Shown: piece after piece, positions 12,324 through 59,622 of the stretch
How positions within the stretch are numbered: the first letter of the stretch is position 1
Layout: every line of letters begins with the position of its first letter
From: a candidate division WOR-3 bacterium
Lineage (GTDB): Bacteria > Hydrothermota > Tepidihabitantia > SM23-42 > CAYGYG01
NCBI GenBank assembly: GCA_965648915.1
Contig: CBFGIV010000007.1
Span: 132 to 64,131, forward strand
Reading direction: 5' to 3'
DNA length: 64,000 nucleotides
Notes under the pieces: generated by a model
What the model was told of the DNA's origin: nothing
The model's input: only the letters and a program-made list of their open reading frames with translations
Databases searched by the model: none
Made by a program: the position numbers and the translations under genes

Positions 12324-14060
12324 TTACTTCAGTCGAACTATCTTGCCTTCCATACATTGATGGTCGATATTTATTCTGAGAAAATAGATACCTGCAGGTA
12401 ACTGGACAAAAACTTTTTCGCTATAAAATCCAGCATTTAACCTCTTTGCAAAAAGTTTCGCCATTCTCTTACCCGTGCAGTCATATATTTCAGCCTGAAC
12501 AATTGCCGGGAACTGCAAATTATAGGAGAATTTGATTGGCTCGTTCGAAAAAACTGGATTGGGATAAATTACGAACTTCAAATTACCAGACCGGTTTCGG
12601 ATTTCATCAACTTTTACTGTGGTATTCCTGAAAAGATAGGCAACGCCATTGGTGTGGTCAGAAAGAAGAAGCTCCCGATCGGACGAATAGTTATATTTGA
12701 AAATAACCTTGCTCTGAGGAGGAATTGCATTCTTAAGGGAGATCCATCCCGATTTGATATTATAGCAATAATCGCTCAACGGTACAGGGTTACCATTTAT
12801 CGTTATTGCAATTAGTCTCTCAATTGGTGCAATCGACAGATAAAAAAGTTTCTTGGTTCCTGAAGCAACGACGGTGTCCTCCTTATACCTGATTCCATCC
12901 CGGTCAACATCGCCTAAGTCAATGCCATAACCACCTGAAACCGCTGAACGCCAAGCATAGGTCCGGTTTAAGGTTCCCGAAATATTTTCATAAACCGCAC
13001 CAAAAGTTCCATTATTAACCGCCCAGTCAAGATAACCATCAGCATTTAAATCTCCGAAAAGCCCAGCTCCCGAAGGCGAGGCGTCGCTGGATTGCCAGGA
13101 AGGATTACTTTCAAGGCTATCACCGAGATTTTTGAAAACGAAATTAACCTTCGGGTCAGTGAAACCGCAGGCAACACCAACATCGAGCCTGCCATCTTTG
13201 TCAAGATCGCCAACTGATAAACCGACCGCAGCAACATCAGCGATGCGTTGTGATCGCCAGGATGCAGATCTTTCCAGTGCACCATTTCGGTTAAAATAGA
13301 TTCGCAATAATGGTTCCTGGGGGTTAATCCCGCTTACCGCCAGATCAAGGTCCCCATCGCTGTCAACATCGATCCAGGCACCACCAAAGTCGAGATTATA
13401 ATCGGTTGCCTGCCACACTGGCTGATCTTCCATTATTCCATTATTGTTCCGGTAAAGTTGCGGATAGGCAAACATATCGGTAATTACCAGATCTAAATCA
13501 CCATCATTGTCAAAGTCACCCCAGTCGCACCAGGTTCCACCTCCATTAGGTGCAATCCAGATTGGATCCCTTGTTAGTGTACCGGCATCATTTCGATACA
13601 ATCTCAGCCGGCCACCCATAAGATAATAGCAGGCAACTGCCATATCCAGATCACCATCATTATCATAATCGCCAAAAGCAGGGGTTACATGGCGGTCAAC
13701 ATCGTTAGACTCCCAGGCAGGCACAGTATCAACGGTGCCATTCCGATTTGCATACAGGTAATTCCTTTCATCCTCGTGAACTGTAATTACTTCTGCAAAA
13801 CCATCGCTGTTTAAATCGACGAGACCAACCCCTAATATACCTCCGTACCACCGGGAAGTCCAGTAAGGTGAAGTTTGAAGAGGAATTGTGAGTTTCTCTC
13901 CACTAGGTTGATTATTTCTCAGACTGTTAACCGGAGTACTCCTCATTAGATTGGAAACTATTGACCTGAGGTCACCGCCACCGGCTTTCTGTCCGGCTGG
14001 TAGTGGATTAACCAATAAGAACAAAACAGTAAACATTCCTGATATATTAAATTTCTCCAT
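12324..14060 (-). CDS. secreted FG-GAP/VCBS-repeat beta-propeller protein with T9SS-type-A/FlgD-like CTD
   Basis: Repeated GDxDxDGDLD motifs; signal peptide; CTD IYPNP..IYDCTGK..GIYF. SD AGGAGG favours ATG14060. Confidence 0.8.
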   Translation of the reverse strand: MEKFNISGMFTVLFLLVNPLPAGQKAGGGDLRSIVSNLMRSTPVNSLRNNQPSGEKLTIPLQTSPYWTSRWYGGILGVGLVDLNSDGFAEVITVHEDERNYLYANRNGTVDTVPAWESNDVDRHVTPAFGDYDNDGDLDMAVACYYLMGGRLRLYRNDAGTLTRDPIWIAPNGGGTWCDWGDFDNDGDLDLVITDMFAYPQLYRNNNGIMEDQPVWQATDYNLDFGGAWIDVDSDGDLDLAVSGINPQEPLLRIYFNRNGALERSASWRSQRIADVAAVGLSVGDLDKDGRLDVGVACGFTDPKVNFVFKNLGDSLESNPSWQSSDASPSGAGLFGDLNADGYLDWAVNNGTFGAVYENISGTLNRTYAWRSAVSGGYGIDLGDVDRDGIRYKEDTVVASGTKKLFYLSIAPIERLIAITINGNPVPLSDYCYNIKSGWISLKNAIPPQSKVIFKYNYSSDRELLLSDHTNGVAYLFRNTTVKVDEIRNRSGNLKFVIYPNPVFSNEPIKFSYNLQFPAIVQAEIYDCTGKRMAKLFAKRLNAGFYSEKVFVQLPAGIYFLRINIDHQCMEGKIVRLK

Positions 14061-14087
14061 GGCTGACACCTCCTTACTTACTTAATC

Positions 14088-15461
14088 TTAATTTAATAAA
14101 ATCACTGACTTACTTACTCTGTATTCCCTGCCTTCAATCTGCACATAGTAAATGCCCGTTGGTAACTGCCTGCCCATATCATCCTTTCCATCCCAGGTAA
14201 TTGTTATCCTCTGATTTTTATCAGGTATTCGATTAAAAGACCTTACCTGTCTTCCATTGATATCATAGATTCCTGCTCCCCAGCAGCCATTAATCAATCC
14301 AACTTCAAAATTAATCACAGTTTTTACCTTAAATGGATTAGGTTCTATTGTAATTTTAATCGGCGCTTGATGATCCACCACAAGTAGTTTTTCTGATTCA
14401 ATCCCTGAGGCAGGCGAATAGCGCAATATCAATCCATTGGCACCTACTGCCCAGGCATTCCTGCGGTTTGTACCGTGAATATCATAGATTGATGTCGCTC
14501 CTGCATTATCATCCAGCCAGTTTACTCCACCATCAGTTGTGAGCAGAATTCCATTATAATAGTCACCTACCCATCCCCAGAGCGCTTCAGGAAAATAGAC
14601 TCCCCAGAATGGTCTCAGTGATGTCGGATTCCTTGTAAACCATGACAGACCTCCATTTGTTGTGGTTACAATTCTTCCAGGTTCCCGGACACTCATCCCG
14701 CCGGCACCTCCAACGCTCCAGCCATTATTGAGATCAACCATCCAGATACTTGTCAAAAAACCCATCGCCGCTGTTCCGGGTCGCCAGTTATGGACACTTG
14801 TCCAGTTTCTTCCGCCATCGGTAGTCCGCCAGATATGACCATCGGTATTATCCCCCGGATACCCCCAGTTTATTCCACCTGAAACTACACCGATTGAAGT
14901 CGTCACGAAATGGATATCCCAGGGAATGGCCGCACTGGCATTTATTCTTTGATTTACCCAGGTAGTTCCACCATCAGTCGTATAAATGATATAACCAAAA
15001 CTATCTGCCCATCCCGTAACCGTAGCCCAGCCCGTATTACCAATAAAACATACGCCATAGCAGGCCCGCCAGTTCGTATTGCTATTGGTATTAAATTGTC
15101 GGCGCCAAGAAAGGCCACCATCTGTGGTTTTGAGAATCTTCTGACAACTTGTGTCGATGACCGTGTAGTTATCCCGTCCTCCAACTACCCATCCAGTTTG
15201 ACGATTGATGAACCATATACTATAAAAAACTGATTTAGTATCGGTATATGCTGTAACCCAGGTCGTTCCCCCGTTAGTCGTTCGAAGGACTATTCCAGAA
15301 TTATTCTCACCACCTGCCGCCCAGCCATAGAGGGAATCGATAAAAAAAACTGCCTTAAGGTCTAAGGTCGTTCCGCTGTTCTGACGAGCCCAGGTCCCAT
15401 ATACAGACAAAGGGGTTAAGAACACGGAACACAACATCATTATGATTTTTTTATTCTTCAT
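14088..15461 (-). CDS. secreted YCF48/BNR-repeat protein with FlgD-Ig/T9SS-like CTD
   Basis: TTxGGxxW Asp-box repeats; CTD WDGKDDMGRQLPTGIY. Confidence 0.8.
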   Translation of the reverse strand: MKNKKIIMMLCSVFLTPLSVYGTWARQNSGTTLDLKAVFFIDSLYGWAAGGENNSGIVLRTTNGGTTWVTAYTDTKSVFYSIWFINRQTGWVVGGRDNYTVIDTSCQKILKTTDGGLSWRRQFNTNSNTNWRACYGVCFIGNTGWATVTGWADSFGYIIYTTDGGTTWVNQRINASAAIPWDIHFVTTSIGVVSGGINWGYPGDNTDGHIWRTTDGGRNWTSVHNWRPGTAAMGFLTSIWMVDLNNGWSVGGAGGMSVREPGRIVTTTNGGLSWFTRNPTSLRPFWGVYFPEALWGWVGDYYNGILLTTDGGVNWLDDNAGATSIYDIHGTNRRNAWAVGANGLILRYSPASGIESEKLLVVDHQAPIKITIEPNPFKVKTVINFEVGLINGCWGAGIYDINGRQVRSFNRIPDKNQRITITWDGKDDMGRQLPTGIYYVQIEGREYRVSKSVILLN

Positions 15462-15486
15462 TTTACCTCCTTTTTATTACATTATA

Positions 15487-16842
15487 CTACTTCACCAGAA
15501 TAATTTTATGATTGAAGAATCGATTGCCGATTGTTGCTTTTATAAAATAGATCCCGGATGAATACTGATTATCTGTTGGCCAAGAAAGGTAAATTGGTCT
15601 TTCGACAAATCCATCATATAAAGTTTCTATCCGTTCCCCGGTGATATCGAAGATCGCTAATTTAATTCTGGTTTTTTCTCTAACATTTAATTTCACGCCC
15701 GTCTGCCTTACCGCAGGATTTGGTGAGATTATAATAACTTCACCAGGTTGAGATTTTATTACCCACTCATCAATACCGACAACCTGGCTGTCACTACGCG
15801 CATAGTAAATCTCTGAAGAACCCTCGGGCATACCATAAAATGTTACATGTCCAACATCCATTTTATCAATATCGAAGACACCTTTATGAATGATTTCATC
15901 CCAGTAGGAATTATTCGTTATCGGGTATTTCTTCCAGGATCCTGTTTTGTTTGTAATATAATAAATTTCAGGGCCAGGGACACGAGTATATACAATGTGC
16001 ACAATATTAGTTCTATCAACGGCAATCGACGGATCACTACTGAGTCTCATTGAACTATCAAGTGGAACCCAGGTCCAGCTACCGCTAACATTAGTTGCAT
16101 AACATAAGATATAGGGTGGCTCGACCTGCTTCTGCCAGGCAATATGTGACTTATTGTTTTGATCACACTTTATCGAGGGTCGATTATTCCTTGCCCCACC
16201 TCCTGTTACATAGGTTTCAACCCAGTTCCCGGTCTCGTTGCTGACGTGGTACAATTGATTGCTTCTTTCATAAGCGATGTGCACTTTTCCCCGGCCGTCC
16301 AGACACAATGCCGGTGTAAACCCTTGAGATATGTTCCATTCAACCTGCCAGTTACCCGACCGGTTTGTTGCATAGCCAATTCCGTTGCCAATACCGATCT
16401 GATAAGCAACATGGGCATATCCATTGTTATCTACTGCCAGCGAGGGAAAAAATTCCTGACCGGTACTTATCGGGATTTGATTGAGAACCCAGTTGCCACT
16501 CTTATTGGTTGCATACCAGAGATACCCACCCAGACCATAAATGTAGACGATGTGAACTTTACCGTTGCGGTCAACGGCAATTGATGGTAGCCATTCATCA
16601 CTTGAGCCCGAAGCCAGAAGCGTATCTACCCAGACGCCTGTTCGATTAGTCAGATAGCGTAAATCCTTAGACCCTAAGTCTCCCTCATCATAAGCGATAT
16701 GCACTTCGCCGTTTGGATCGACCGCCAGACTCGGCGTCGAGTTACTGACAACATTGTTGGTCATTCGCTGGACGGTCCAACTCATCGAACAGAGAATATT
16801 AATAGTTCCTAAAATCAAGAATAGGATAATGGACTCCTTCAT
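15487..16842 (-). CDS. secreted beta-propeller repeat protein with T9SS-like CTD
   Basis: Repeats of PSLAVD..G..HI.Y....Y.TN..G.W; CTD SPNP..IFDITG..SGIYF. Confidence 0.78.
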   Translation of the reverse strand: MKESIILFLILGTINILCSMSWTVQRMTNNVVSNSTPSLAVDPNGEVHIAYDEGDLGSKDLRYLTNRTGVWVDTLLASGSSDEWLPSIAVDRNGKVHIVYIYGLGGYLWYATNKSGNWVLNQIPISTGQEFFPSLAVDNNGYAHVAYQIGIGNGIGYATNRSGNWQVEWNISQGFTPALCLDGRGKVHIAYERSNQLYHVSNETGNWVETYVTGGGARNNRPSIKCDQNNKSHIAWQKQVEPPYILCYATNVSGSWTWVPLDSSMRLSSDPSIAVDRTNIVHIVYTRVPGPEIYYITNKTGSWKKYPITNNSYWDEIIHKGVFDIDKMDVGHVTFYGMPEGSSEIYYARSDSQVVGIDEWVIKSQPGEVIIISPNPAVRQTGVKLNVREKTRIKLAIFDITGERIETLYDGFVERPIYLSWPTDNQYSSGIYFIKATIGNRFFNHKIILVK

Positions 16843-16861
16843 TTCTCCTCCTGATAATTCT

Positions 16862-18277
16862 CTATCGCATTAAGATTAACTTGTCCTGAGTTCGAAAATT
16901 CGGACTTTCGAATATTATATAGTAAACCCCAGATTGTAATGATTGCCCCTGATCATCCTTGCCATCCCAGATGATTGACGCCTTGGCCAGCCGGAGATCA
17001 AATGATTTAATACGCCGACCCGCAACATCAAAAATATTCACTGAAATCTTAGAATTGACGTCTATCTGTTGAGTTGCCCAATCAATGACCACCTTCTCAC
17101 GAAAAGGATTGGGATAGATCTTGAGGACAACATCATTTCGAGGGATTTTAGGATATTCTTCAGCAACCTCCGCGGTGTAGATAAATTCATATATGTTACT
17201 ATTGGAACTTGTCATATAAAGACGTTTAACACCATCATTTCTTGCATCTGCAACAACCGCATCGCAGTATGCCACACCGCTTGCTCCTTCCCCATCCACC
17301 CAGGTCGAATCCCATCCTGAACCATTCCAAGTGTATTCTAAGGCATATCTCATACCGCCGGTTGTTCCTGAATAGATACGGTTTATTCCATCATTACGGC
17401 CCGGTCCACCAGTTATACAATTAGGCAGATTAGGCATCGAACCGATAAGTACCTTATCCCAACCACTTCCATTCCAGCTAAATTCATACAGCGCCGTAGG
17501 TGTGACATCATGACCGGTGTAGACTCTATTTCTTCCATCATTCCGACCCGGACCGATCCAGACCTTTCGGTAACGGGATGAAACGGAATCTAAGTTCATA
17601 AAAACCCATCCGGAACCGGCCCAGGTATACTCTCGCAATTGAGACCCCTGTTTACCAAAATAAAGACGCTGGATGTTGTCGTTTCGACCCGGACCGATGG
17701 TAATCTCTATTCCACTCCAATCTGTGATAGCCTGATTTGTAACCCAAGAGCTCCCGTCCCAGGTCGATTCAAATGTTCGATTGTTATTGCAATCACAGGC
17801 ATATACTCTATTTCTTCCATCATTTCGACCCGGACCAACTGCAATCCCGTGACCGGCTGATGAACTTGGACTTGAGGGGAAAGTGCACACAACTTCTCGA
17901 TCCCAGGAAGTCCCATTCCAGGAAAATTCATATACTCCGCCGTATTGAGGATTGACAACCGTAAAGGTACAATAGACCCGTATTATACCGTCGTTCTTTC
18001 CTTCACCGAGCGCCACTTCCCATCCCGAGGTCGGTCCCATATCGACGCGATCCCAAGAAGTCCCGTTCCAAGAAAATTCATAGAGCCTTGACCAGCTTGC
18101 CACATAAATCCGGTTTATCCCATCATTTCTACCAGGACCAACTGCAATCCCATATGCCCAGTTAGTAACCGTCCCAATCGAGGACTTGGTCCAACCCGCC
18201 AGAAGGGGCAAAACCAGCAACATATTAAGCCCGACAACACTTATGATCCTGATATTGAAAATAACGCATCTCTTCAT
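16862..18277 (-). CDS. secreted beta-propeller with RSL/AAL fucose-lectin-like repeats and FlgD-Ig CTD
   Basis: About seven repeats of G(P/E)GRNDG..R(I/V/L)Y...E(F/Y)(S/T)W.G..W; CTD WDGKDDQGQSLQSGVY. Confidence 0.7.
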   Translation of the reverse strand: MKRCVIFNIRIISVVGLNMLLVLPLLAGWTKSSIGTVTNWAYGIAVGPGRNDGINRIYVASWSRLYEFSWNGTSWDRVDMGPTSGWEVALGEGKNDGIIRVYCTFTVVNPQYGGVYEFSWNGTSWDREVVCTFPSSPSSSAGHGIAVGPGRNDGRNRVYACDCNNNRTFESTWDGSSWVTNQAITDWSGIEITIGPGRNDNIQRLYFGKQGSQLREYTWAGSGWVFMNLDSVSSRYRKVWIGPGRNDGRNRVYTGHDVTPTALYEFSWNGSGWDKVLIGSMPNLPNCITGGPGRNDGINRIYSGTTGGMRYALEYTWNGSGWDSTWVDGEGASGVAYCDAVVADARNDGVKRLYMTSSNSNIYEFIYTAEVAEEYPKIPRNDVVLKIYPNPFREKVVIDWATQQIDVNSKISVNIFDVAGRRIKSFDLRLAKASIIWDGKDDQGQSLQSGVYYIIFESPNFRTQDKLILMR

Positions 18278-18291
18278 CTTCCCTCCTTTTT

Positions 18292-19692
18292 CTATCGCAT
18301 CAAGATTAACTTGCTGTATGTCCGGAAACCCGGGCTTTCCAGAGTAACATAATAGACGCCCGATGGTAGTACTCGCCCCTGATTATCTTTGCCGTCCCAG
18401 AAAAATTTCCAGTTGCCTTTGTTTAAAGGGCCTTCCTTTATCACCGCCACTACTCGGCCAGCGCCGTCATGAACTCTGAGGTTAACCAGAAGAGCCTGAT
18501 CAAGCATAAATGAAATGGAAATCGGACCGCGACTCGGATTGGGTGATACTGAAAAATTATGATGACGGAGCAGGGAATTTATCTCATTACCAACTCCGGT
18601 GCCCGTTCCTCTAAATTTGACAATATACATATCCCTGCCATTATCGCCCACTGCGTAAAAATCATTCAAGGTATCGGATGCCACATCCATTGATATATAA
18701 CAGGTATGACTGGTCTGCCATAGTAATGTTCCACCCGAATTGTATTTAAAGACATCGGTTGCGCTATTGGCGGCAACAACAATCACATTGTTAAACTGAT
18801 CAGTAGTTACACCACCACCACCGTTGTTATCCCCGCTATCATAAGTTCTCACCCAGATCCGGTTGCCACTGGAATCATATTTAATCGTTACGCAATCATA
18901 ATTAGTGAAGACCAGGGTTCCCGTAACGATAGGATTGTTACTTTTATCAACTGCAAGGCCATAGGCGCCGTCAAAAGGTTCAGGCCCACCTTGAAAGAGT
19001 CGCGTATAGGTTCGATCCCACCGATAGTTGCCGTTCTGATCATACTTTATCGTCAGAAAACCGCAATTGCCCGGCGGTCGAATTGGATAAAAAAATCCTG
19101 CAACATAGATATTATTGAAAGCATCGGTCTTTGCTCTCAATGTATAGCTTGCATACCCGGTGGGAAAAGTCTTTGCCCAGATAAGATTGCCTGAAGAATC
19201 AAATTTCACGGTCAGCGGTTCCCAGTAATCGTTAATATAATACCAGCCTGTGGTAATGATATTGTAATTGTTATCAATGGCAACACCGCACGCGCCATCC
19301 CAGGTTCCGTGAAGATATTCTCGCGACCATTTAAATACTCCATTTTTGTCGTATTTGACAATGAGAAAAGCCGAATTCCCGTTCTGTCGATAGCCTGCGA
19401 CCACAACATCATTCTTTCTATCAACTGCAACCGCCATACCGTGAGTAAGTTTTGCCGCACCAAAACGCCTTGCCCAGATTAGATCACCCCGGGAATTATA
19501 TTTGAGGGTAATAATGCTATCATTTCCTGTCCCTGATCCTTTATAACCGGTAACAATAACATTCTGTTCATAGTCAACCGCAACGCCGCAGGCAATATCG
19601 CCGGTGCCACCTGCATCATAAGACCTTTCCCAGAGGACAGACTGTCCTGAACTAAAAGTTATCAAAAACAGAACAATGATTAATAACCACAT
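18292..19692 (-). CDS. secreted beta-propeller (SBBP-like) protein with FlgD-Ig CTD
   Basis: Repeats VAVD..NN.I.TG......KYD..G...W; SD AGGAGG before ATG19692 (MWLLIIVL signal peptide); CTD WDGKDNQG. Confidence 0.78.
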   Translation of the reverse strand: MWLLIIVLFLITFSSGQSVLWERSYDAGGTGDIACGVAVDYEQNVIVTGYKGSGTGNDSIITLKYNSRGDLIWARRFGAAKLTHGMAVAVDRKNDVVVAGYRQNGNSAFLIVKYDKNGVFKWSREYLHGTWDGACGVAIDNNYNIITTGWYYINDYWEPLTVKFDSSGNLIWAKTFPTGYASYTLRAKTDAFNNIYVAGFFYPIRPPGNCGFLTIKYDQNGNYRWDRTYTRLFQGGPEPFDGAYGLAVDKSNNPIVTGTLVFTNYDCVTIKYDSSGNRIWVRTYDSGDNNGGGGVTTDQFNNVIVVAANSATDVFKYNSGGTLLWQTSHTCYISMDVASDTLNDFYAVGDNGRDMYIVKFRGTGTGVGNEINSLLRHHNFSVSPNPSRGPISISFMLDQALLVNLRVHDGAGRVVAVIKEGPLNKGNWKFFWDGKDNQGRVLPSGVYYVTLESPGFRTYSKLILMR

Positions 19693-19882
19693 ATTTCCTC
19701 CTGATTGGTTATATTCCTTTTTCCTTATAATCGTCGATTGAACGCCATCCCCAGAAAAGTGCCGGAAAGGCAAGCGTCTGATTGGATTTTTTTCCTTTTT
19801 TGCAAGAATTTTTGTTCCTCAATCGTGCTATAACCATCCGCTGTTTTCTGGGGATCTTACTTTTATTTTTTCTCACGATTAT

Positions 19883-19924
19883 ATTATACTGGTAAGTCTT
19901 AAAAAAAACTTAAAAGTTTCTTAA
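19883..19924 (-). promoter_or_regulatory. activator-dependent promoter: three TTAAG boxes phased at 11 bp, then TATAAT
   Basis: Plus-strand CTTAA at 19898, 19909 and 19920; minus-strand TATAAT at 19888-19883; no TTGACA. Confidence 0.55.
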
Positions 19925-19940
19925 AGATTTCTCCCTACCC

Positions 19941-22900
19941 TTACTTTCCTATAAGTTCATTATAGACACGAATAATTTCTGCCCCCGGCGCCCTACCAAG
20001 TTCTTTCTCAAAAATGAGAAGGAGTTGTTTATAGTGGTCGATCATTTTTTTATCAAGACCCAGGGCTTTATAACATTTCATTACATAGCAATGAATCTCT
20101 TCATTAAAGGGATCGATCTTTAACGACCTTTCAAAATACTCACAACTTCTTTTATAATCTTTTTTTTCAAAGAATATCCGTCCAAGATTATTCAAGCCCT
20201 CATTATATTCCTGCTTTATATAGTTTCTTATTGTTTCACACCAGGGATCGTAAATTTCAGGCAGAAATTCCTCTTGCCTAAGGTCCAGTCCCTGTAAATA
20301 ATATTCAATACGATACTCGGACTCCGTTTCACCCTTTGCTTTTTTCATAATTTGTTCAAACTTTTCAAAATCAGACGCATACTTAAAGGCGGGGTTGAGA
20401 TAGTAGAATTCCCGAGAGTGATTGATAATTTTAAATCCAAGTATTTGCTGGAATATCTTTCTTATAAACGAGATATTGGTATAGAGATTCTGTTCCCCTT
20501 TATTTTTATACCATCCCGGCCAGAAGATTTCAGTCAGCTGTTCCTTAGTGAACCTCTTCCCTGGATGGAGGACGAAATAACAGAAAAGCGATTTTGTTTT
20601 TTGCGTTGGCCAGTTCACCACCAATTTTTTACCGTTGGTTTTGAAAATTTCTAAACCCCCGAAGAATTTTATAACCAATCCATCTCTTTTTGTTGAAAAA
20701 TCCACCCCCTCTACCTCTTTAATTAAACTCTCAACATAATTGAAATTTATCTTCTGGTTATAAGCAAATTCAAGAAATGTCGCATCATTTTTGTATTCTT
20801 TCATCAGCAAAAAGTCATAGGACTTGGATTCTGCAATATCGAGACATTCATTAACTAAACGCCGCGCCCGGGATCGGTCATTTCTCTTGATGAGAGCCCG
20901 TGACAGGTAGAAAAGGCTTCGAAACTCAAAATAGGGAACTTTGAGGAATCGAGCAATCTTCAATGCTTTCCGATAAGAAACTATTGCCCCGGTTAAATTT
21001 TGGTTACTCTCTTCAATCTGTCCTTTAATAATTGTTAAGTTTAAAAGGTCGATATTATCCGTTTTTAGATTAACAAATAGTTTGGCCTGCTCGTAGAATT
21101 TATTGGCCCTAACACGATCACCCAACGCCAGATAAGTCGAAGCGAGATCAATCCGTGCCGCAAAATCTATTCTTCGCTCTTTAAGACTTCGATTGGCTTC
21201 TATGGCACGTTCATAGTAACTGATTGCCTGTTTATAATCGCCTTTACTTAAGTAGAATTGTCCGCGGGTACCAAGAAGATAAGTCAATGATCTGCGGTCG
21301 TTGAATTTACGGCAAATTTCTTCAGCCCTTTCCAGATAAATCCTTGCTTCATCTAGTCGGCCCAGGTCCAGGGCGATAGCGGTAGCGTTCCCGTATACAT
21401 TGCCCATCCAGGGCAGAACCGGCCCCTCATTTTCATATTCTTTTATAATTCGACTTAGTATCTCCATTGCCTTCTGAAATTCACCTCGCACTGAATAGAT
21501 AAAAGCAAGCCCGCAGGCAATATGAATATTGGCTTGAGAATCACTTATTTTTTGAGCTACTCTCCAGGCTTCGATCATATATTTCTCGGCGAGAGAAAGC
21601 CGACCCATTGCCTGAAAAATAACCGATATAGAGTGATAGATCTTGGTTAAAAGCAAATAATCGTTCTTAGGAGCAAGCCGACTGGCCTGTTTTTCAATTC
21701 TTAACGCCCTATCGACATTTCCCCGATAATGATATATCATACCCATCTCATTAAGTGTCAGGACACATATCTTTTTATTCCTTCCTTTCTTACAGCACAT
21801 ATAGACCTCGTCAAGGATAGCGAGGGCATCATCCCATCGTCCCCAGTGCCGGAGGATTTTGGCTTTGCTTAAATAAAGGTCAGGATTATCCTTCAGAGTT
21901 CGTATCGGTAATCTCTCCAGCCAATTGTAAAGCATGGCAAACATCCCGGCCGCCATTAATCTATTCAAAAACCTTCTAAGGGCATTCAGGGCATTTAAGT
22001 ACTTTTCGCCTGCAATAAAGTGTTCGATCGCTTGAATGAGATCACCTTTCTTTTCATAATAAATACCTGCTCGATAATGGAGGTGTCGCACCGCCTGTGC
22101 CCCGTACTGATTGGTTAATTGTTTTTTAAGAAATTCCCTGAAAAGACGATGATATTGATAAATCCCTGCATCTAAATAGGAGACAAAGAGATGGTTACGT
22201 TCAAGATATGTGAGAATTGCATCGGGATTTTTAATCCCCAAAAGAAAATGGCAATTTTTTTGATCCATCTGGTCAAGGATTGAAGAACGAAGAAGAAAGT
22301 CTCTAATTTGAGGTTTCTGTCGAGCGAGGATTTCTTTAGTAAAATAGTTAAAAATTGTCTCGCCAGAATGGAGGTAATTGTTAAGCACCGTATCGGTATT
22401 TTTCTCATTTTGGGTTAGCAAATTTTGAATGACGAGCCTCAAGGCAGTAATCCATCCTTCAGAATATTCCTTCAGACGATTGACCTCTTCTCCAGATAAG
22501 GTTATACCGGCTATTTTTTTAAATAACTTTTCAATCTCATCCCGGTCAAACATCATATCCCGGCGATCGATTTCGAGAAATTCCTGTCGGGCAATGAGTT
22601 TTGTTAAAGTGAATGGCGGCCTGATTCGTGTCGAGATGATAAAATGGAGAAACTCCGGACCAAAACAAAGGATAAAGTCCATAAATTGATTGATCTCTCG
22701 AGATTCAGCGAGATGATGATAATCGTCAAAGATAAAATAGATTGGCCTTCCTATCTTATCAACAATATCGTTTATAAGAATTGTGGCGCTCGATTCGAGA
22801 TTTCTTGTCTGTTGGTAATTTTCAACTGCCCGGGTAGTGAAATCTCTATTAATATTTGATATTCCAGAAGATAGGTAATTTAGAAAGACCGCAAGGTCGC

Positions 22901-23108
22901 GATCTTTTTCATCAATTTGATAATAAAAATAGGGAAATGGGAAATTGGTCAAAAGTTCTGACAGGATAGTAGTTTTACCATAACCGGCATCGGCACAGAT
23001 CAGTATAAATCGACGGTTAAGGTTTTTTCTAATATAGGAGACAAGTCGCGCCCTTGGAAGAAAATCATCTTTAAATTTTGGGGGAATTAGTTTAGTTAAC
23101 AATATCAC
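19941..23108 (-). CDS. MalT-like STAND ATPase / TPR / winged-HTH-BTAD (SARP-type) transcriptional regulator
   Basis: TKLIPP..LPRARL, Walker A ADAGYGKTT, FDDYH, EGWITAL, TPR array, C-terminal FFGGLEI..K.LFCYF..LRQEEFLPE..DPFNEEIH. Confidence 0.85.
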   Translation of the reverse strand: MILLTKLIPPKFKDDFLPRARLVSYIRKNLNRRFILICADAGYGKTTILSELLTNFPFPYFYYQIDEKDRDLAVFLNYLSSGISNINRDFTTRAVENYQQTRNLESSATILINDIVDKIGRPIYFIFDDYHHLAESREINQFMDFILCFGPEFLHFIISTRIRPPFTLTKLIARQEFLEIDRRDMMFDRDEIEKLFKKIAGITLSGEEVNRLKEYSEGWITALRLVIQNLLTQNEKNTDTVLNNYLHSGETIFNYFTKEILARQKPQIRDFLLRSSILDQMDQKNCHFLLGIKNPDAILTYLERNHLFVSYLDAGIYQYHRLFREFLKKQLTNQYGAQAVRHLHYRAGIYYEKKGDLIQAIEHFIAGEKYLNALNALRRFLNRLMAAGMFAMLYNWLERLPIRTLKDNPDLYLSKAKILRHWGRWDDALAILDEVYMCCKKGRNKKICVLTLNEMGMIYHYRGNVDRALRIEKQASRLAPKNDYLLLTKIYHSISVIFQAMGRLSLAEKYMIEAWRVAQKISDSQANIHIACGLAFIYSVRGEFQKAMEILSRIIKEYENEGPVLPWMGNVYGNATAIALDLGRLDEARIYLERAEEICRKFNDRRSLTYLLGTRGQFYLSKGDYKQAISYYERAIEANRSLKERRIDFAARIDLASTYLALGDRVRANKFYEQAKLFVNLKTDNIDLLNLTIIKGQIEESNQNLTGAIVSYRKALKIARFLKVPYFEFRSLFYLSRALIKRNDRSRARRLVNECLDIAESKSYDFLLMKEYKNDATFLEFAYNQKINFNYVESLIKEVEGVDFSTKRDGLVIKFFGGLEIFKTNGKKLVVNWPTQKTKSLFCYFVLHPGKRFTKEQLTEIFWPGWYKNKGEQNLYTNISFIRKIFQQILGFKIINHSREFYYLNPAFKYASDFEKFEQIMKKAKGETESEYRIEYYLQGLDLRQEEFLPEIYDPWCETIRNYIKQEYNEGLNNLGRIFFEKKDYKRSCEYFERSLKIDPFNEEIHCYVMKCYKALGLDKKMIDHYKQLLLIFEKELGRAPGAEIIRVYNELIGK

Positions 23109-25508: not shown

Positions 25509-25874
25509 CTATACTTTCGATAAATAACGAACAAACTTTATTAACATCTTGGATGTTGTCTCGGCTAAAAAATAAATGTAATTAAACTGCTCTTGAGTTA
25601 TATATTTCTGGTCAAACGCTACATATAATGCAGATTGAACTTCAGCCGCAGAACCATGCGCTTGCACAAGAAATCTTGCAAACTCTTTATCAGTTTTTCG
25701 GGCAAAACCCTCAGCAATATTCAACATAATGGAAACCGAAGCTCTTCTTATTTGATCTCTCAGACCAAAATCCCTTCTAAAACCAGAAGATAAACTAATT
25801 TCGTATACTGCTTTTGTCAACTCCCTTGCCTTCTGCCACGCTTCAATATCTTCAAACCTTTTTATTCTTGCCAT
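25509..25874 (-). CDS. four helix bundle protein (23S rRNA-IVP/Avd-like family)
   Basis: RFEDIEAWQKAREL, LRDQIRRASVSI..NIAEGF, GSAAEV; SD AGGAAGG. Confidence 0.9.
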   Translation of the reverse strand: MARIKRFEDIEAWQKARELTKAVYEISLSSGFRRDFGLRDQIRRASVSIMLNIAEGFARKTDKEFARFLVQAHGSAAEVQSALYVAFDQKYITQEQFNYIYFLAETTSKMLIKFVRYLSKV

Positions 25875-25954: not shown

Positions 25955-26726
25955 ATCTCAATCCTTGTTTTAATGGAACCTGCTTTCAAACTTATCCATT
26001 TTATCCATATCACTTATTATATCCATTTGTTTCAATCCTTGTTTTAATGGAACCTGCTTTCAAACCTTTTTTTGCTCAATCCAGAGACAATATATCAAAA
26101 TATGGTTTCAATCCTTGTTTTAATGGAACCTGCTTTCAAACAATATCTACCCTTCTTTTTTCGATTTAATGAATAAGTTTCAATCCTTGTTTTAATGGAA
26201 CCTGCTTTCAAACATGAAAAGGCAATAATCTTTTTGGCAAATATAATAAAGTTTCAATCCTTGTTTTAATGGAACCTGCTTTCAAACAAATTAAAATGAA
26301 GATAAAATGTAGAATTTGCGGGTTTCAATCCTTGTTTTAATGGAACCTGCTTTCAAACGGGTAGGCAGAGTTTATATCATAGAAATATATATTTTGTTTC
26401 AATCCTTGTTTTAATGGAACCTGCTTTCAAACTCCATTTTAACCTCTTTGTCAATAATTATGATGTATCGTTTCAATCCTTGTTTTAATGGAACCTGCTT
26501 TCAAACTTTGTATGTCCGATTATTCAGATTTCGATGGTACGTTTCAATCCTTGTTTTAATGGAACCTGCTTTCAAACTTTTTTGCTCAATCCAGCGACAA
26601 TATATCAAAATATGGTTTCAATCCTTGTTTTAATGGAACCTGCTTTCAAACTGGATATGGGGTGGAATGACAATAGTGCCAAGAATTATGTTTCAATCCT
26701 TGTTTTAATGGAACCTGCTTTCAAAC
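25955..26726 (-). CRISPR. CRISPR array, 11 repeats (37 nt) and 10 spacers (34-39 nt)
   Basis: Repeat GTTTGAAAGCAGGTTCCATTAAAACAAGGATTGAAAC on the minus strand. Plus-strand starts: 25955 (degenerate terminal), 26029, 26105, 26177, 26251, 26322, 26396, 26470, 26541, 26615, 26690. Confidence 0.98.
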
Positions 26727-26925: not shown

Positions 26926-27525
26926 TCACACACAAATATTCCGGTAACAACAATCAATACACCGATTGCGATATGAAGTTCGTTTTGGAAAATAACCCAT
27001 TAAAATCACCTTAAAAATCTCATCAATCACTTTTAAAGTATATTCAAAATCGGTGGGCTTGTAAAGTATCTCTTTCAAAGTTGCCCCCCCGCGCACATAA
27101 CATATATAACCTCTATAAACTGGTCTATTATAGATCTCTTTTATCAACATCGCATATAGCACAGACTGATATTTATGAGTTCGAAAAAGGTAATCATTAT
27201 ATTCAGTGTATTTATAATCCAATGGTGCCATAGAACCATCTTCAAGTGTGAGCACCTCGTCAACCACACCTCGCACTCTTATCTTTGGCGATGCAAGATA
27301 TACGCTCAACTCTTTTTTCACACACCCAATCTTTTTACGAAGATATTCTTTATTCTCTTTTTCTTTTCGGTCATGTAACTGTCTGCCCTTTATTACTTTG
27401 TATCTCAACTCCTCGTGCTGGGGAATTTTTAAACAATTCATAAAATATGTAAAACGAGGGCAGAATAAATGCTCAATCACCTCTGAAGGCGTTATCATTG
27501 GAGTGCTTTCAGAATCCAACTCCAT
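26926..27525 (-). CDS. cas4: CRISPR-associated exonuclease Cas4
   Basis: FCPR, RGVVD, DYK RecB motifs; C-terminal CxxCxxxxxC. Alternative start ATG27498. Confidence 0.93.
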   Translation of the reverse strand: MELDSESTPMITPSEVIEHLFCPRFTYFMNCLKIPQHEELRYKVIKGRQLHDRKEKENKEYLRKKIGCVKKELSVYLASPKIRVRGVVDEVLTLEDGSMAPLDYKYTEYNDYLFRTHKYQSVLYAMLIKEIYNRPVYRGYICYVRGGATLKEILYKPTDFEYTLKVIDEIFKVILMGYFPKRTSYRNRCIDCCYRNICV

Positions 27526-27546
27526 AACTCTCTAACTCCCCAACTC

Positions 27547-27879
<333 letters not shown>

Positions 27880-28275
27880 TCATATCTTAGAATAAGTTTG
27901 CCAGTTATTCATAAGAGAATAAAGCATAGCGTTAACTCTATCATATTTATCATCCAATCTTTTATAAGTACTTTCGTCCATGTATTTACAATCAAGTGCG
28001 AAATCCAACCAACCTCTCGTCTCTTCGCTTGAACCCAGAGCATCATTGAGATGTCGGATGAATATTTGTTCGTATTTTCTCTTAGCAAATCCTTCTCGTA
28101 CATTAATAGGAACCGACCTTGATGATCGTCTAATTTGGTCAATTAGCGAGTATTTTTCTTCAGGAGGAAACAATTTTGATATTTCAAATATTTCCATTGC
28201 CAGTTCATAAGATAATTGATACACTCTCAAATCCTTAATCGACCTAACAGATCGCCTCATTCTATCCTCTGTCAT
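27880..28275 (-). CDS. four helix bundle protein inserted between cas1 and cas2
   Basis: DLRVYQ, FPPEEKYSLIDQIRRSSRSV..NVREGF, GSSEET. Confidence 0.9.
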   Translation of the reverse strand: MTEDRMRRSVRSIKDLRVYQLSYELAMEIFEISKLFPPEEKYSLIDQIRRSSRSVPINVREGFAKRKYEQIFIRHLNDALGSSEETRGWLDFALDCKYMDESTYKRLDDKYDRVNAMLYSLMNNWQTYSKI

Positions 28276-28288
28276 CTGTCCTCTGTCT

Positions 28289-29260
28289 TCAGTCCTCGAT
28301 CAATCTGTTCGCTATGGCATGGCATTCAAACTGAATAATATCCGTCCTTTTAATATTTCTGCCGCAATACCGGATTGATTCGTTCATAAATGCAGTAAAA
28401 TTTTCAATCAGCATTGCCTTGCCTTCTTTATTTAAACTATAACCGTTTTCCAGTTTGTCAAAATGCTCCTGTTTAACCTTTCTTCCAGCAAAGAGATTTA
28501 CCACGGTCTCATCAGCCCAGATGCGAAAATTTTCTATTATATCAAAAACCAGAGATTTTTTATTATAATTGTCGGTATGAATAATGCCAACATAAGGATC
28601 AAGCCCGGCAATGATACAGGCCTTTTCCACTTTTGAATACAAAATTCCGTATGCGTAATTCAAAAGTGCGTTAAATTCATCCTTAGCTGGATTTCTGCTT
28701 CGGCCATCAAATCTATATCTATCTGGCATTAAAAAACTCAAGCATTCAAAATAGACCCTTCCCCCACTACCTTCAATCCCCATAATCGTGCCCCGTTTTT
28801 CTTCAATGGTGCCGGAAAGATTATCAAGTGATTCTCGGCAATTCTCTAATCTTTCAATATAAGCAGTAATTTCAGCAGACTTCTGGGTGCGTGTGGTACG
28901 AAGTCTCTTTAAGAATTCAATCTGATTTTCAAATTTCCTTATCACCCAGGAAAGGGCAAGTTTTAGTCCTTCCTCATTTTCGGCGATCTCAATCTGCCTT
29001 CTTCTTATCAGTGTTGTGCTGCCAATCCGGCTATGCCAGACCTGTCCATAAGGCTCTCCAAACTCATCAAGAAAGATAATATCAATATTATTCTCCATTG
29101 CCATCTTTATCGCATCGGTCGTAATATATGCAGCCGTGGTAATCAAAATTGAAGAGACCTTTTTGACAGAAATTTCAAAAACCTGGTCATCCCGTTTAAC
29201 CTTAAAACAATCACCTTCCTTGCAAAGATAAGAGCCATAACTATTTATGACTAACTGCAT
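28289..29260 (-). CDS. cas1: CRISPR-associated endonuclease Cas1
   Basis: MGIEG, NALLNYAYG, GLDPYVGIIH, LVFDIIENFR. Confidence 0.96.
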   Translation of the reverse strand: MQLVINSYGSYLCKEGDCFKVKRDDQVFEISVKKVSSILITTAAYITTDAIKMAMENNIDIIFLDEFGEPYGQVWHSRIGSTTLIRRRQIEIAENEEGLKLALSWVIRKFENQIEFLKRLRTTRTQKSAEITAYIERLENCRESLDNLSGTIEEKRGTIMGIEGSGGRVYFECLSFLMPDRYRFDGRSRNPAKDEFNALLNYAYGILYSKVEKACIIAGLDPYVGIIHTDNYNKKSLVFDIIENFRIWADETVVNLFAGRKVKQEHFDKLENGYSLNKEGKAMLIENFTAFMNESIRYCGRNIKRTDIIQFECHAIANRLIED

Positions 29261-29305
29261 AAATGTCTATTTTTCAGGAGTAAAAAATTGGCGAACGCAC
29301 CAGTA

Positions 29306-29932
29306 TTAGTCCTGAAGGTGTTTTTCAAATTCTCTTAAATTAGCCATAAAAAACTTTTTTATATTATCCCACTGCCATTCTTTGCCTTTTATAACGATAA
29401 TTGGAGACGGCTCATCCTCAGCGTCTTCAAAAAAAATCATACTCTTAAGAACATGATACATATTGATATCAGACGAACCAAATCTTTTTTTGAAAGCCAG
29501 ACACGCCTCTTCTATCGACAACTTCAGTTGTATGGCTGCATACAAGTCATAAAAATCCTTTTTTGTTCCTCGTTGAGAAATCGCCTTGAATTTCTCCGCC
29601 ACGATATCCCGCCAATCAGCAAGTTCTATTTTGCGCCAGTTAATTACTGGATAAACAAGCGGTTGATTATAAAAGAGAAATGATAACTTGACTTTATTTA
29701 ATTCACAATGAATTGTTCCTTCTCTCACCAGCAGGGTTTTATCGGGCTGGATAGTTTTGAGAAGGAATTCAGTGTTGAACATTTTTGATGAAAAGAAATC
29801 TAAATCCGCTGATTTCCTGTGTCCCAACTGAAGTGCCAGTCCTGTGCCACCCGCCAGATAAAAATCATCGAGGTTGGCGGCTAATTTATTGATTATTTTA
29901 AGTGCGTTCTCTGGTAATACTTCTTCAAACAT
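29306..29932 (-). CDS. AbiEii/AbiGii-type nucleotidyltransferase toxin (type IV TA)
   Basis: FYLAGGTGLALQLGHRKSADLDFF, EKFKAI.QRG.KKDFYDLY. Confidence 0.88.
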   Translation of the reverse strand: MFEEVLPENALKIINKLAANLDDFYLAGGTGLALQLGHRKSADLDFFSSKMFNTEFLLKTIQPDKTLLVREGTIHCELNKVKLSFLFYNQPLVYPVINWRKIELADWRDIVAEKFKAISQRGTKKDFYDLYAAIQLKLSIEEACLAFKKRFGSSDINMYHVLKSMIFFEDAEDEPSPIIVIKGKEWQWDNIKKFFMANLREFEKHLQD

Positions 29933-30201
29933 GCAATCTCCTCAAATGGAATTCCAAAGTAAACCGCCCAGAACTTACCAGTCTGTGGTAATAATCCACG
30001 CTTCTTTTTGATAACTTCAATAATTTTTTCAGGAGGATACATTTCCCTCAATCTCTTAATATCATTCCCGTCTCCAAAGTCAAGTACTCGGGCAATTACA
30101 TAGTGTGCATTCTTTACACTGTCTAACTTCTGTGCATCCCAAAATAAAATTGGATTAAATATTTTCTTTGGGTTATTACCTTTGTGGTGTTTTACTTTCA
30201 T
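29893..30201 (-). CDS. DUF6922-like small protein, putative antitoxin partner
   Basis: LFWD...D...A.YVIARVLDFG; overlaps the toxin gene; has its own promoter. Confidence 0.75.
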   Translation of the reverse strand: MKVKHHKGNNPKKIFNPILFWDAQKLDSVKNAHYVIARVLDFGDGNDIKRLREMYPPEKIIEVIKKKRGLLPQTGKFWAVYFGIPFEEIACLKKYYQRTHLK

Positions 30202-30206
30202 ATGTA

Positions 30207-30234
30207 ATTATACTCAATTTTCAGATACTTTCAA
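30207..30234 (-). promoter_or_regulatory. internal promoter of the TA pair (probably leaderless)
   Basis: TTGAAA 30234-30229, 16 nt, TATAAT 30212-30207, ATG 5 nt later. Confidence 0.65.
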
Positions 30235-30265
30235 CCACATTATCCTGTATTCTGTCCATTTTATT

Positions 30266-30949
30266 CTATTTTTTTTGACTCCCCAACTCCTCAACTCTCT
30301 TTACCGTCCCGAATCCCCTTGAAACCGATTTGCCAAGCCCCCAGTATTCAGGGATTTCAAAATTCACGGAAAAATTCCCCAGAAACCCAAGCATGGGAGT
30401 GCCTTTGAGGGAGGTGAGGATTTCTTTCATCTTGCCGATGTTCGCCTTAATCGGCTCAAGCACTGTATAGCCAAGACTCTTTGACATTGAAATAATGTTG
30501 CCGATGAGAATCTTTTCAAGAAGTTCTTTTCTTTTCTGCCATGTGCCAAGCTTCTGGTACTGTTCATAGTTCTTCTCATTCAGGGCGAGCCAAGGGGTGA
30601 GGAAGGAGTAGGAGTTATTTATATCGGTTGTTCCAAAATAATCAGTTCTCAGTATAACAGCTTTCTCTTTTATTTGATATTCAGAGCGACCAATTTTTAA
30701 ATAATCAATATCTTCATGAATTTTTTGAAGAATATCTGCACCTTCGTTAATTCCAAGAACAAAAGGTTTCCCATCGAATATTTTGTATTGTATCAGTGGT
30801 GCTTTATAAAGAAGTTTGTTGTCAGTTAAGTGCTGGTGAATAAGCGTATATTCTCCAAATTTATCTGCAAAAAATCCTCTGAGTTTATCAGCCGTTCCTT
30901 TCACAGATTCATCACAGGTAAAATGGAAAAATAAGGTTTTAACTCTCAC
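30266..30949 (-). CDS. cas6: CRISPR-associated endoribonuclease Cas6 (Cas6b-like)
   Basis: KLRGFF, YKAPLIQYK, SFLTPWLALN, LIGNIISM, G-rich loop GLGKSVSRGFG. Confidence 0.9.
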   Translation of the reverse strand: MRVKTLFFHFTCDESVKGTADKLRGFFADKFGEYTLIHQHLTDNKLLYKAPLIQYKIFDGKPFVLGINEGADILQKIHEDIDYLKIGRSEYQIKEKAVILRTDYFGTTDINNSYSFLTPWLALNEKNYEQYQKLGTWQKRKELLEKILIGNIISMSKSLGYTVLEPIKANIGKMKEILTSLKGTPMLGFLGNFSVNFEIPEYWGLGKSVSRGFGTVKRVEELGSQKK

Positions 30950-31752
30950 TTTTTCTTACTCTTCCTTTTCTTACCTATTGCTTTACCTTTCTCTTCTTCT
31001 GCCAGCGGTTTTGCCAAAACATATCCTATCTCATCTATCTTAAAAACTTTTTCATTAGATATCCTGACTTTAAGGTATGACGGGTTTAATATTTTATTTT
31101 TTTCCCGGATAGGAACCATATAACTTATTAATGGAAAATTATTATCCTGCTTCTTACATCTTTCATGCATTAAGTAAACCTGTCCATTGCCATCTTCTAT
31201 TTTTGTATCCTTTGTAAAAGGGATAGGATATTCTGTTTGGATGACATCGTCTTTTATATCATCAGATACATCCCTGCTCATCACCTCACTATCCAGGGAA
31301 ATAGGTGATTCACTATCTCCACAGGTTAGAGGAGAGGCTTTAAGTGCCTCTACGAGAGTCGAAATAGGGATATTATTTGAGAGCATATCACTTTTAAAGA
31401 TTGCCGCTATCTGTAATTTATTGGAATAGGCATATTGTCTTCCAAGGGCATTAGTAAATTTAGGAAGTTTATTACCAATCTTATCTTCCCATTTGACAAT
31501 GGCAGAAGTTGTATAGCTTTTAATAACACAAGGACTTAAAAGTCTTGAGCCAGCCCACAGTAAATTATTTTCAATCATGTCAAGATATTCTAAAGGATGT
31601 TTGTTATTTTTATATCGTTGTAAAGCATTTGCAAGCATCCCTATAATAGCAGAAGGTGGCAATACAGGATATGTTAGGGCAGACTGCCAAGTAAAGGGGA
31701 TTCTAATTGAATAGAGGGAATTTAGTCTTATGTTAAAGATTAATACCTTCAT
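30946..31752 (-). CDS. cas5: type I-A CRISPR-associated Cas5 (Cas5a-like)
   Basis: YSIRIPFTWQSALTYPVLPPSAIIGMLANAL RAMP start; GDSES. Confidence 0.85.
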   Translation of the reverse strand: MKVLIFNIRLNSLYSIRIPFTWQSALTYPVLPPSAIIGMLANALQRYKNNKHPLEYLDMIENNLLWAGSRLLSPCVIKSYTTSAIVKWEDKIGNKLPKFTNALGRQYAYSNKLQIAAIFKSDMLSNNIPISTLVEALKASPLTCGDSESPISLDSEVMSRDVSDDIKDDVIQTEYPIPFTKDTKIEDGNGQVYLMHERCKKQDNNFPLISYMVPIREKNKILNPSYLKVRISNEKVFKIDEIGYVLAKPLAEEEKGKAIGKKRKSKKK

Positions 31753-31755
31753 TGT

Positions 31756-36463: not shown

Positions 36464-36567
36464 AGGAAATCAATTTCTTTAATCGCTTCAATCATAGGTC
36501 ATTCAAATTTTGGAGTTGCGGAGTTGAAGAGTTGGAGAGTTGAAAAACGGAAAAAGAGGACAGATAA

Positions 36568-45174: not shown

Positions 45175-45319
45175 AATATCTCCTTTCATCCTATATTCTA
45201 TTCTATAATATGAGCATGCCAACCTCCTCAAATTTCTCTAATCGCTGAGATTTCAGAATTTTTTAGTCTTTTGTCTTAAATATTGACTTTTGTTCAATAT
45301 TGATTAAAATTTTCAAATT

Positions 45320-59506: not shown

Positions 59507-59622
59507 ACTACCTCCTGTTTCCAAAAACAACAAGTCATTACCTAAAAATAATCATTTTCAAAAATATGTCAAGTAAATTTCTCTCTGATTGACATTGTCC
59601 CAAATCTGGCTATAATCCACTG

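Follow-up and report, generated by a model that had tools for sequence, protein, structure and literature searches.

What protein, if any, reads three short direct repeats that stand in helical phase just ahead of a TATAAT hexamer, in a stretch where no −35 element can be recognized? The repeats lie on the minus strand of contig CBFGIV010000007.1 from a candidate division WOR-3 bacterium, in a 64-kb window (the whole stretch of DNA analysed here), between the gene for a large regulator and an operon of five genes for secreted proteins. An earlier note made from the sequence alone had proposed an operator in the style of Streptomyces antibiotic regulatory proteins (SARPs). From sequence comparison, a structural model and analogy with known activators, we consider it likely, with good confidence, that the regulator encoded immediately upstream has its cognate operator in the three TTTAAGW heptamers; this regulator would be a one-component STAND sensor that activates transcription in the manner of a SARP.

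The box array and its promoter

Read directly on the minus strand, the sequence around the boxes is aaatcTTTAAGaaacTTTTAAGttttTTTTAAGacttaccagTATAATataat. The regulator gene ends with the stop codon TAA (19943-19941), which is followed by gggtagggagaaatc TTTAAGA aact TTTAAGT tttt TTTAAGA cttaccag TATAAT ataatcgtgag. The array begins 16 nt past the stop codon, and a terminator scan finds none between the two. The reading bears out the claims that TTAAG recurs at exact 11-bp steps (plus-strand CTTAA at 19898, 19909 and 19920) and that the proximal copy ends 9 nt (ACTTACCAG) before TATAAT. Taken as heptamers, the array has the form heptamer-4-heptamer-4-heptamer-8-(−10), and its parts are the following, L002 being the locus of the closest relative of the regulator.

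19919-19925, minus strand: box 1, the distal heptamer TTTAAGA, with its TTAAG core at 19924-19920, followed by the 4-bp spacer AACT; it aligns with an invariant TTAAG of L002
19908-19914, minus strand: box 2, the middle heptamer TTTAAGT, with its core at 19913-19909, in the place of a −35 and followed by the 4-bp spacer TTTT
19897-19903, minus strand: box 3, the proximal heptamer TTTAAGA, with its core at 19902-19898, ending 8 bp before the −10
19889-19896, minus strand: the 8-bp gap CTTACCAG between box 3 and the −10, conserved in length and not in sequence, since L002 has TCAGCCGT, also 8 bp
19878-19888, minus strand: the −10 hexamer TATAAT (19888-19883) and a second TATAAT that overlaps it (19883-19878); L002 keeps TATAATAT
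19871-19876, minus strand: predicted transcription start, from the position of the −10, near G19876 (7 nt past the first −10) or at A19871 (if the second −10 is used)

The boxes had also been said to replace the −35, and this agrees with what is found at the −35 position. The hexamers that a 16-18 bp spacer would place there (TAAGTT, AAGTTT and AGTTTT) match TTGACA at one position of six at most. A TGn extension is likewise absent before TATAAT 19888-19883, and a generic sigma-70 scan did not call the promoter at that hexamer.

Published SARP sites are heptamer repeats with 4-bp spacers, the 3′ repeat lying 8 bp from the −10 and the repeats overlapping the −35 (PMC10936776, PMC7040171, PMC8306873); the 3′ heptamer is described as 'stringently 8 bp upstream' of the −10 (PMC7040171, PMC8306873). 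The layout in the window equals this heptamer/4-bp/8-bp rule, so the proposed SARP-style geometry holds. The period of SARP operators may be 11 bp or 22 bp. At afsS, two 11-bp repeats extend over −40 to −19, the downstream one (DRdown) covering −29 to −19, the −10 lies at −12 to −7, and contacts are limited to the first 8 bp of each repeat (PMC10936776). In the afsS register the window reads TTTTTAAG-ACT / TACCAG / TATAAT, and its conserved part lies exactly within the contacted 8 bp. The window fits both registers, as TTTAAGA plus 8 bp and as TTTTTAAG-ACT plus 6 bp.

How often would such an array arise by accident? The exact three-box pattern occurs once in the window and in none of 100 dinucleotide shuffles, and the two-box pattern is found at this site only. 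The earlier note had held that its idea would fall if the pattern were as common in random AT-rich intergenic DNA, and here the outcome is divided. Shuffling the 248-bp intergenic region alone gives a match in 1.5e-4 of trials, whereas a look-elsewhere count (any 5-mer, three copies at 11 bp, anywhere) gives at least one match in 10% of locally shuffled windows. Taken by itself, the site is marginally beyond chance in the window and suggestive rather than compelling.

The array is also a place where assemblies break. An NCBI contig with an identical regulator (L001, GCA_039802405.1) ends 21 nt past the stop codon, and the Logan contigs of run X1 have a gap at 19863-19937. Both breaks probably reflect low coverage of an AT-rich, repetitive stretch.

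The adjacent regulator and how it might act

The gene that ends just before the array encodes a protein with the following layout, as seen from Pfam and an alignment of homologs.

19941-23108, minus strand: regulator gene, 1055 amino acids, comprising a MalT-like STAND NTPase, WHD_MalT, TPR_MalT, TPR repeats and a C-terminal SARP domain
19944-20678, minus strand: coding region of the SARP domain (residues 811-1055), with an OmpR-type winged helix-turn-helix (wHTH) at about 811-905 and BTAD at 913-1052

Pfam matches AAA_22, TPR_MalT (E 1.2e-25) and many TPR repeats, to which precomputed matches add WHD_MalT. BTAD (PF03704) is matched at residues 913-1052, directly after the wHTH, with E 1.8e-11 and above the gathering score. 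The Walker A motif AGYGKTT (residues 41-47) and the Walker B pair DD (128-129) are invariant in 28 full-length homologs, and the order STAND NTPase, WHD, TPR and then SARP domain is common to all 28 in the alignment.

A search of the PDB with the single sequence was dominated by TPR matches; profile and fold searches resolved the C-terminal domain. The profile, built from the aligned C-terminal 250 residues of 25 relatives, was searched against PDB sequences and matches AfsR (8hvr, 8k60 and 8jke; AfsR residues 67-284) at E 2.6e-18 to 3.5e-17 and EmbR (2fez) at E 2.3e-10, in each case as a single stretch over wHTH plus BTAD; the ToxR winged helix is matched as well (E 3e-6). The AlphaFold2 model of residues 811-1055 has a mean pLDDT of 96.7 and combines the beta-alpha-alpha-alpha-hairpin layout of a wHTH with an all-helical BTAD segment. 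The best Foldseek matches of this model are the SARP domain of AfsR in the transcription initiation complex (TM 0.80-0.82, root-mean-square deviation 3.0 Å, about 245 columns) and then EmbR (TM 0.77), followed by plain TPR proteins with TM below 0.4. These results agree with the claim that the upstream gene ends in a wHTH-BTAD module.

By homology and by this model, the regulator joins a MalT-type STAND sensor to a SARP domain at the C-terminus, the reverse of the order in AfsR. It has the N-terminal two thirds in common with MalT and the other large ATP-binding LuxR-family (LAL) regulators, namely a STAND module with Walker A and B, WHD_MalT and TPR_MalT. However, the effector of MalT and LAL proteins is a LuxR/GerE HTH, whereas no GerE match is found in the window regulator, whose C-terminus is wHTH-BTAD. 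The exchange of the GerE HTH for a SARP effector domain would explain why 11-bp-phased heptamers stand by the −10 instead of MalT boxes. By analogy with MalT, oligomerization driven by ligand and ATP probably delivers several DNA-binding domains to the repeated boxes.

From what was computed (the site with its geometry, the homology and fold of the domain, and how boxes and helices are conserved and co-vary), we infer the binding, the oligomer number, the activation, the start and the signal in the following model. A ligand together with ATP would switch the STAND module on and lead to oligomerization. Two to three SARP domains would then line up along one face of the helix, each on an 11-bp repeat, with the proximal protomer 8 bp from the −10 and the middle protomer in the place of the −35. 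The bound domains would make up for the missing −35 contact: they would hold sigma region 4, the beta flap and the alpha subunit's C-terminal domain, as AfsR does at afsS. RNA polymerase would open TATAAT 19888-19883 and start near 19876, and the transcript would carry the five genes for type IX secreted propeller proteins behind a leader of 184 nt.

A site that overlaps the −35 could in principle also repress, so that the regulator would act as a repressor or roadblock that covers the −35 region and shuts off the operon or read-through from its own gene. The site does overlap the −35 position, and it lies 16 nt past the regulator stop codon with no terminator in between. However, its geometry is that of the SARP activation complexes solved by cryo-electron microscopy, and the BTAD, the part that contacts RNA polymerase, is retained here and conserved among the relatives. 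Characterized SARPs are activators in published descriptions. With no −35 present that could be occluded, the promoter should by itself be weak, which counts against repression, and we regard a repressor as improbable.

Boxes and recognition helices in related loci

A scan of GTDB genomes with the single protein returned no close relative, and a family alignment was needed to find them. The protein search then scored 8000 candidates, among which 540 are relatives at E≤1e-10; those of full length among the listed ones have the same architecture, and for several of them JGI uses a name of the type 'MalT / SARP family'. Relatives of full length come from WOR-3, Stahlbacteria, TA06, Acidobacteriota, Chloroflexota, Desulfobacterota and Vulcanimicrobiota.

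The closest of them, P0002 at locus L002 (57% identity), lies on a 12-kb contig, before genes with FlgD_ig/Por_Secre_tail domains. The spacer downstream of it reads TTAAG-aactaa-TTAAG-gttcta-TTAAG-gtcagccgt-TATAAT, and in the pairwise alignment with the window the boxes, the spacing and TATAATAT are kept and the spacers have diverged. The earlier note had suggested a scan for phased TTAAG near BTAD genes; TTAAG-N6-TTAAG is present in 4 of the 164 fetched loci, and in three of these four it stands directly behind the stop codon of the regulator.

Is the spacing conserved where the letters are not? At every spacing between 6 and 26, we counted how many loci repeat a 6-mer exactly (three or more different letters) within the 260 nt behind the regulator stop codon. 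This spectrum replaced an automatic best-array finder, which favoured period 12 and low-complexity runs. In the metagenome set, which includes the window, 17 of 29 loci have such a pair at spacing 11, where 1.4 are expected and 200 shuffles reach 5 at most; seven loci have one at spacing 12, and every other spacing has five or fewer. The independent set of GTDB genomes, with duplicates removed, gives 15 of 27 loci at spacing 11 vs 1.3 expected, so that exact repeats at 11 bp just downstream of the regulator are found in 32 of 56 related loci over both sets. The 260 nt upstream of the same genes have no peak (6 of 51 at spacing 11, compared to 3-6 at neighbouring spacings).

These counts bear on whether the repeat has no function and arose by chance in AT-rich intergenic DNA or was left behind by replication slippage. 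The region is indeed AT-rich with T-runs, and the look-elsewhere rate given above is in line with accident. However, boxes, spacing and −10 are kept in L002 despite diverged spacers, the same architecture with other boxes recurs in dozens of loci, and the enrichment is sharp at 11 bp only and absent upstream. The related loci are also not assembly duplicates, since box sequences and phyla differ. It is this conservation that makes the site significant, and we consider an accident highly unlikely.

In the related loci, the hexamer follows the end of the repeat block at a distance of 4 to 12 nt, 9 nt being the commonest (16 loci with at least a 5/6 match to TATAAT). Most loci have a TAnnnT hexamer 9 nt past the 5-mer core, and some have it at 10-12; a distance of 9 nt corresponds to a heptamer plus 8 bp. 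The boxes themselves differ from group to group, and further types occur in addition to those given here.

TCAAG/TTGAG/TCAAG, 9 nt, TATAAT: L003
TCGAG, two to three copies, 9 nt, TAAAAT or TATCCT: L005 and L006
GTGAG, 9-10 nt, TAnnnT: L007, L008, L009, L019, L087 and L103
TCACA, 9 nt, TATAAT or TAGTAT: L018, L088, L091, L092 and L095
TTGAG, three copies, 9 nt, TATAAT: L086
TGTTATG, −10-like hexamer: L093 and L162
ATTTAGT, −10-like hexamer: L033-35 and L111

The TCGAG box is also part of published SARP motifs, such as the ActII-ORF4 site. One subgroup (L110, L122, L133 and L144, which are Chloroflexota, with L029 and L031) has repeats with a 12-bp period, for example two copies of TTTTGAAGCCTG, before a −10-like hexamer, and this period departs from the SARP spacing rule.

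If the adjacent protein reads the boxes, its recognition helix should change along with them. In the window this helix is ...NLYTNISFIRK... (at about residues 874-884). When the C-terminal domains are aligned with MAFFT and their helices are grouped by the type of box, helices and boxes correspond one to one in the related loci.

NLYTNIS: TTAAG (window and L002)
NLHEHIS: TCAAG
SLHDHIS: TCGAG
SL[QH]VEIS: GTGAG (six loci)
LRK[AT].Q[HY]: TCAC[AG] (six loci)
RFN.AMS: ATTTAG (four loci)
RTTAYRMR: TGTTATG
RFKN[DE].YRLRR: TTTTGAAGCCTG (four loci)

The correspondence was then used for prediction. Nine loci with a known helix type and no repeats in the first 260 nt were searched for the predicted boxes, and six of the nine have exact pairs of them with a −10-like hexamer 9-11 nt past the 5-mer core. 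In L117 at 6538-6570 (Desulfocicer vacuolatum DSM 3385, NZ_FWXY01000034.1), ATTTAGT-caaa-ATTTAGT lies 334 nt after the regulator stop codon and behind a hairpin-rich spacer, and TATATT follows 9 nt past the TTAGT core. The predicted boxes of L113 and L114 are also downstream of the regulator gene, and those of L097 (at 2864), L096 (about 1.1 kb upstream) and L013 (at about 3861) are upstream of it. L092 (at about 2860) and L098 (at about 2796) have an upstream site as well as a downstream one, with a −10-like hexamer.

The upstream box pairs suggest autoregulation, of the positive kind, in those members. We also considered autoregulation in the window and rejected it: no TTAAG pair occurs upstream of the regulator gene, and the family has no general 11-bp peak upstream.

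Taken together, these comparisons support a pairing of regulator and site that appears to be conserved and to co-evolve in WOR-3, Stahlbacteria, TA06, Acidobacteriota, Chloroflexota and Desulfobacterota. They also help to decide whether the boxes belong to the adjacent STAND-SARP protein or to another winged-helix protein of the OmpR/PhoB type, such as a response regulator. The winged-helix protomers of PhoB/OmpR-type regulators bind head to tail on direct repeats of 11 bp that take the place of the −35 (pho boxes), and in this respect their sites resemble that of the window. Repeats with an 11-bp period near a −10 are a general habit of the OmpR family, as in PhoB and in the resemblance of AfsR to GlnR, and the tie of the site to the adjacent protein comes from sequence comparison. 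However, site and regulator gene are physically linked in 32 of 56 loci and in at least five phyla, the box changes along with the recognition helix of the adjacent protein, and boxes can be predicted from the helix. Pfam finds no response-regulator gene adjacent to the regulator. A PhoB/OmpR regulator also has a receiver domain with a phospho-acceptor aspartate; in contrast, Pfam gives no Response_reg match in the 1055 residues of the window regulator, which carries BTAD and a STAND ATPase on the same polypeptide. We find it very unlikely that another winged-helix protein is the one that binds.

A different possibility is that the element works in the RNA, where it might terminate or attenuate transcription of the regulator gene or belong to a structured leader. 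The array stands directly behind the stop codon, and short inverted repeats surround box 2, AAACTT..AAGTTT in the window and AGAAC..GTTCT in L002. However, these inverted repeats are spaced by 2 nt in the window and 8 nt in L002, and they are AT-rich and lack the context of a terminator T-tract. The terminator scan is empty here, and an Rfam scan of the intergenic region and leader gave one meaningless microRNA match (E 0.12). Direct repeats in helical phase before a −10 are moreover no feature of an RNA, and a role as an RNA element seems extremely unlikely. A palindromic operator for a dimer was also considered and rejected, since the spacing of the inverted repeats differs between the window and L002.

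Several observations weigh against a cognate operator for SARP-style activation by the adjacent regulator, in addition to the look-elsewhere rate and the overlap with the −35 already discussed. The first 260 nt lack 11-bp repeats in 24 of the 56 related loci, and three of the nine loci that were searched more widely have no boxes anywhere. In Pfam, the wHTH reaches a sub-threshold Trans_reg_C match (20.8 vs 26.2 bits, E 4e-4), so that it is recognized by profile and fold only. The rules for WOR-3 promoters were taken solely from the recurrence of TATAAT-like hexamers at a fixed distance in these loci. The only metatranscriptome from the same hot-spring study has zero coverage of the locus, and both the start and the regulation are predictions. 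Finally, the promoter lies 184 nt from the start codon, and another promoter or control at the level of the leader may dominate.

The predicted target operon and the wider family

The genes that the regulator would control, and the leader in front of them, are as follows.

12324-19692, minus strand: target operon of five genes (19692-18292, 18277-16862, 16842-15487, 15461-14088 and 14069-12324) with gaps of 14-25 nt
19693-19870, minus strand: leader of about 184 nt, as follows from a start near 19876 and the ATG at 19692, with the ribosome-binding site AGGAGG at 19705-19700

All five products have a signal peptide and a C-terminal FlgD_ig or Por_Secre_tail domain, which are those of type IX secretion, and three of the five have BNR/Asp-box and FG-GAP propeller repeats. 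The earlier note's sensor-activator circuit for a secreted-propeller operon stands as far as the target goes, with five type IX cargo genes and propellers in three of them; the activation is what we infer. The order of regulator and then cargo is also found in L002, L003 and L005. The neighbours of relatives include type IX cargo with BNR, Kelch or DUF5122 propellers, a TonB-dependent receptor in the GTGAG group and an NrfD-type membrane subunit in Desulfobacterota.

A block in the leader, TTCTGGGGATGGCG (at about 19757-19744, minus strand), is conserved in L002 (at about 6846-6859); the form common to both is TTCTGGGG[AC]TGGCG. The block can pair with CCCCAGAAAA about 95 nt upstream to give a 12-bp stem with a fold z of −1.5, and the two sequences offer no usable covariation. 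It may provide a second control, at the level of the leader.

The runs that contain the window sequence are hot-spring metagenomes. The best named relatives of the GcvPA encoded in the window (about 60% identity) are almost only from candidate division WOR-3, which places the host far outside Actinobacteria, as had been claimed. Elsewhere in the window, a PorU-like type IX sortase is encoded at 49182-51443, and BNR/Ycf48-like propeller proteins are found among the open reading frames at 42658-45231 and 58235-59533. With the sortase and these further propeller genes, the genome seems rich in type IX cargo.

Another region of the window holds a CRISPR array next to a type I-B-like cas operon (Cas4, Cas1, Cas6b, Cas7/DevR and Cas3), at 25958-26726 and 26926-36463; the CRISPR repeat is approximately GTTTCAATCCTTGTTTTAATGGAACCTGCTTTCAAAC, with a period of about 73. 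Interspersed here are an AbiEii-like gene and two genes for a '23S rRNA intervening sequence protein' (25509-25874 and 27880-28275). The GC content of the region, 0.34-0.38, is below that of the rest of the window. Short tandem repeats with units of 7-8 or 14-16 bp (AACTC..., TCTGTC... and GAGTTG...) stand at gene boundaries of the cas region, at 27518-27548, 28261-28297 and 36513-36544.

How does the window regulator compare to characterized systems? By profile and fold, it resembles the Streptomyces SARPs AfsR (at afsS), ActII-ORF4, DnrI, RedD and PapR2 in having an OmpR-type wHTH plus BTAD. Its site resembles their promoters in that direct heptamers with 4-bp spacers recur at an 11-bp period, the 3′ repeat stands 8 bp ahead of the −10, and the −35 is poor or missing. 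The SARP module, in contrast, is C-terminal behind a MalT-type STAND module in the window regulator, whereas it is the whole protein in small SARPs and N-terminal in large ones such as AfsR, where NOD and TPR follow it, so that the order is reversed. The work on AfsR itself noted a resemblance to GlnR and drew a parallel to MalT. The boxes differ as well, being AT-rich TTTAAGW in three repeats here and two repeats at afsS. The host is WOR-3-like instead of an actinomycete, and the targets are type IX secreted propeller proteins instead of antibiotic gene clusters. Because domain order, taxon and targets differ, the window regulator falls outside the SARP family as strictly defined; it makes use of the SARP domain and of the SARP operator grammar.

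EmbR of Mycobacterium tuberculosis, whose wHTH-BTAD core has the same fold, is another case of a SARP core joined to a different sensory module. There, however, the partner is a C-terminal FHA domain under Ser/Thr kinase control, whereas in the window regulator it is an N-terminal STAND-TPR. A literature search found no paper that describes an architecture of STAND with a C-terminal SARP domain, or its operators.

Beyond this locus, we lean slightly towards a broader picture, in which the window holds one member of a large, uncharacterized, multi-phylum class of one-component regulators that combine STAND with a C-terminal SARP domain and are wired in cis to adjacent promoters. The SARP grammar would then be ancient or widely transferred, helices and boxes would follow a recognition code, and such regulators may be main switches of type IX cargo operons in the FCB group. 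SARPs have been described as 'exclusively found in actinomycetes', where they control clusters for secondary metabolites and antibiotics (PMC7040171). With each regulator wired in cis to the promoter by its own gene, the SARP grammar would not be a speciality of actinomycetes; module and promoter grammar would be present in candidate phyla with another chassis and other targets.

For organisms without genetics, the locus offers a concrete candidate pair of regulator and operator, and Desulfocicer vacuolatum DSM 3385 is a cultured organism in which the family can be studied. The roughly 40 natural pairs of box and helix may amount to a specificity code for SARP winged helices, which would aid the prediction of SARP targets in Streptomyces. 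If the broader picture is true, protein sequence alone would suffice to predict target sites for uncultured WOR-3, Stahlbacteria, Acidobacteriota, Chloroflexota and Desulfobacterota.

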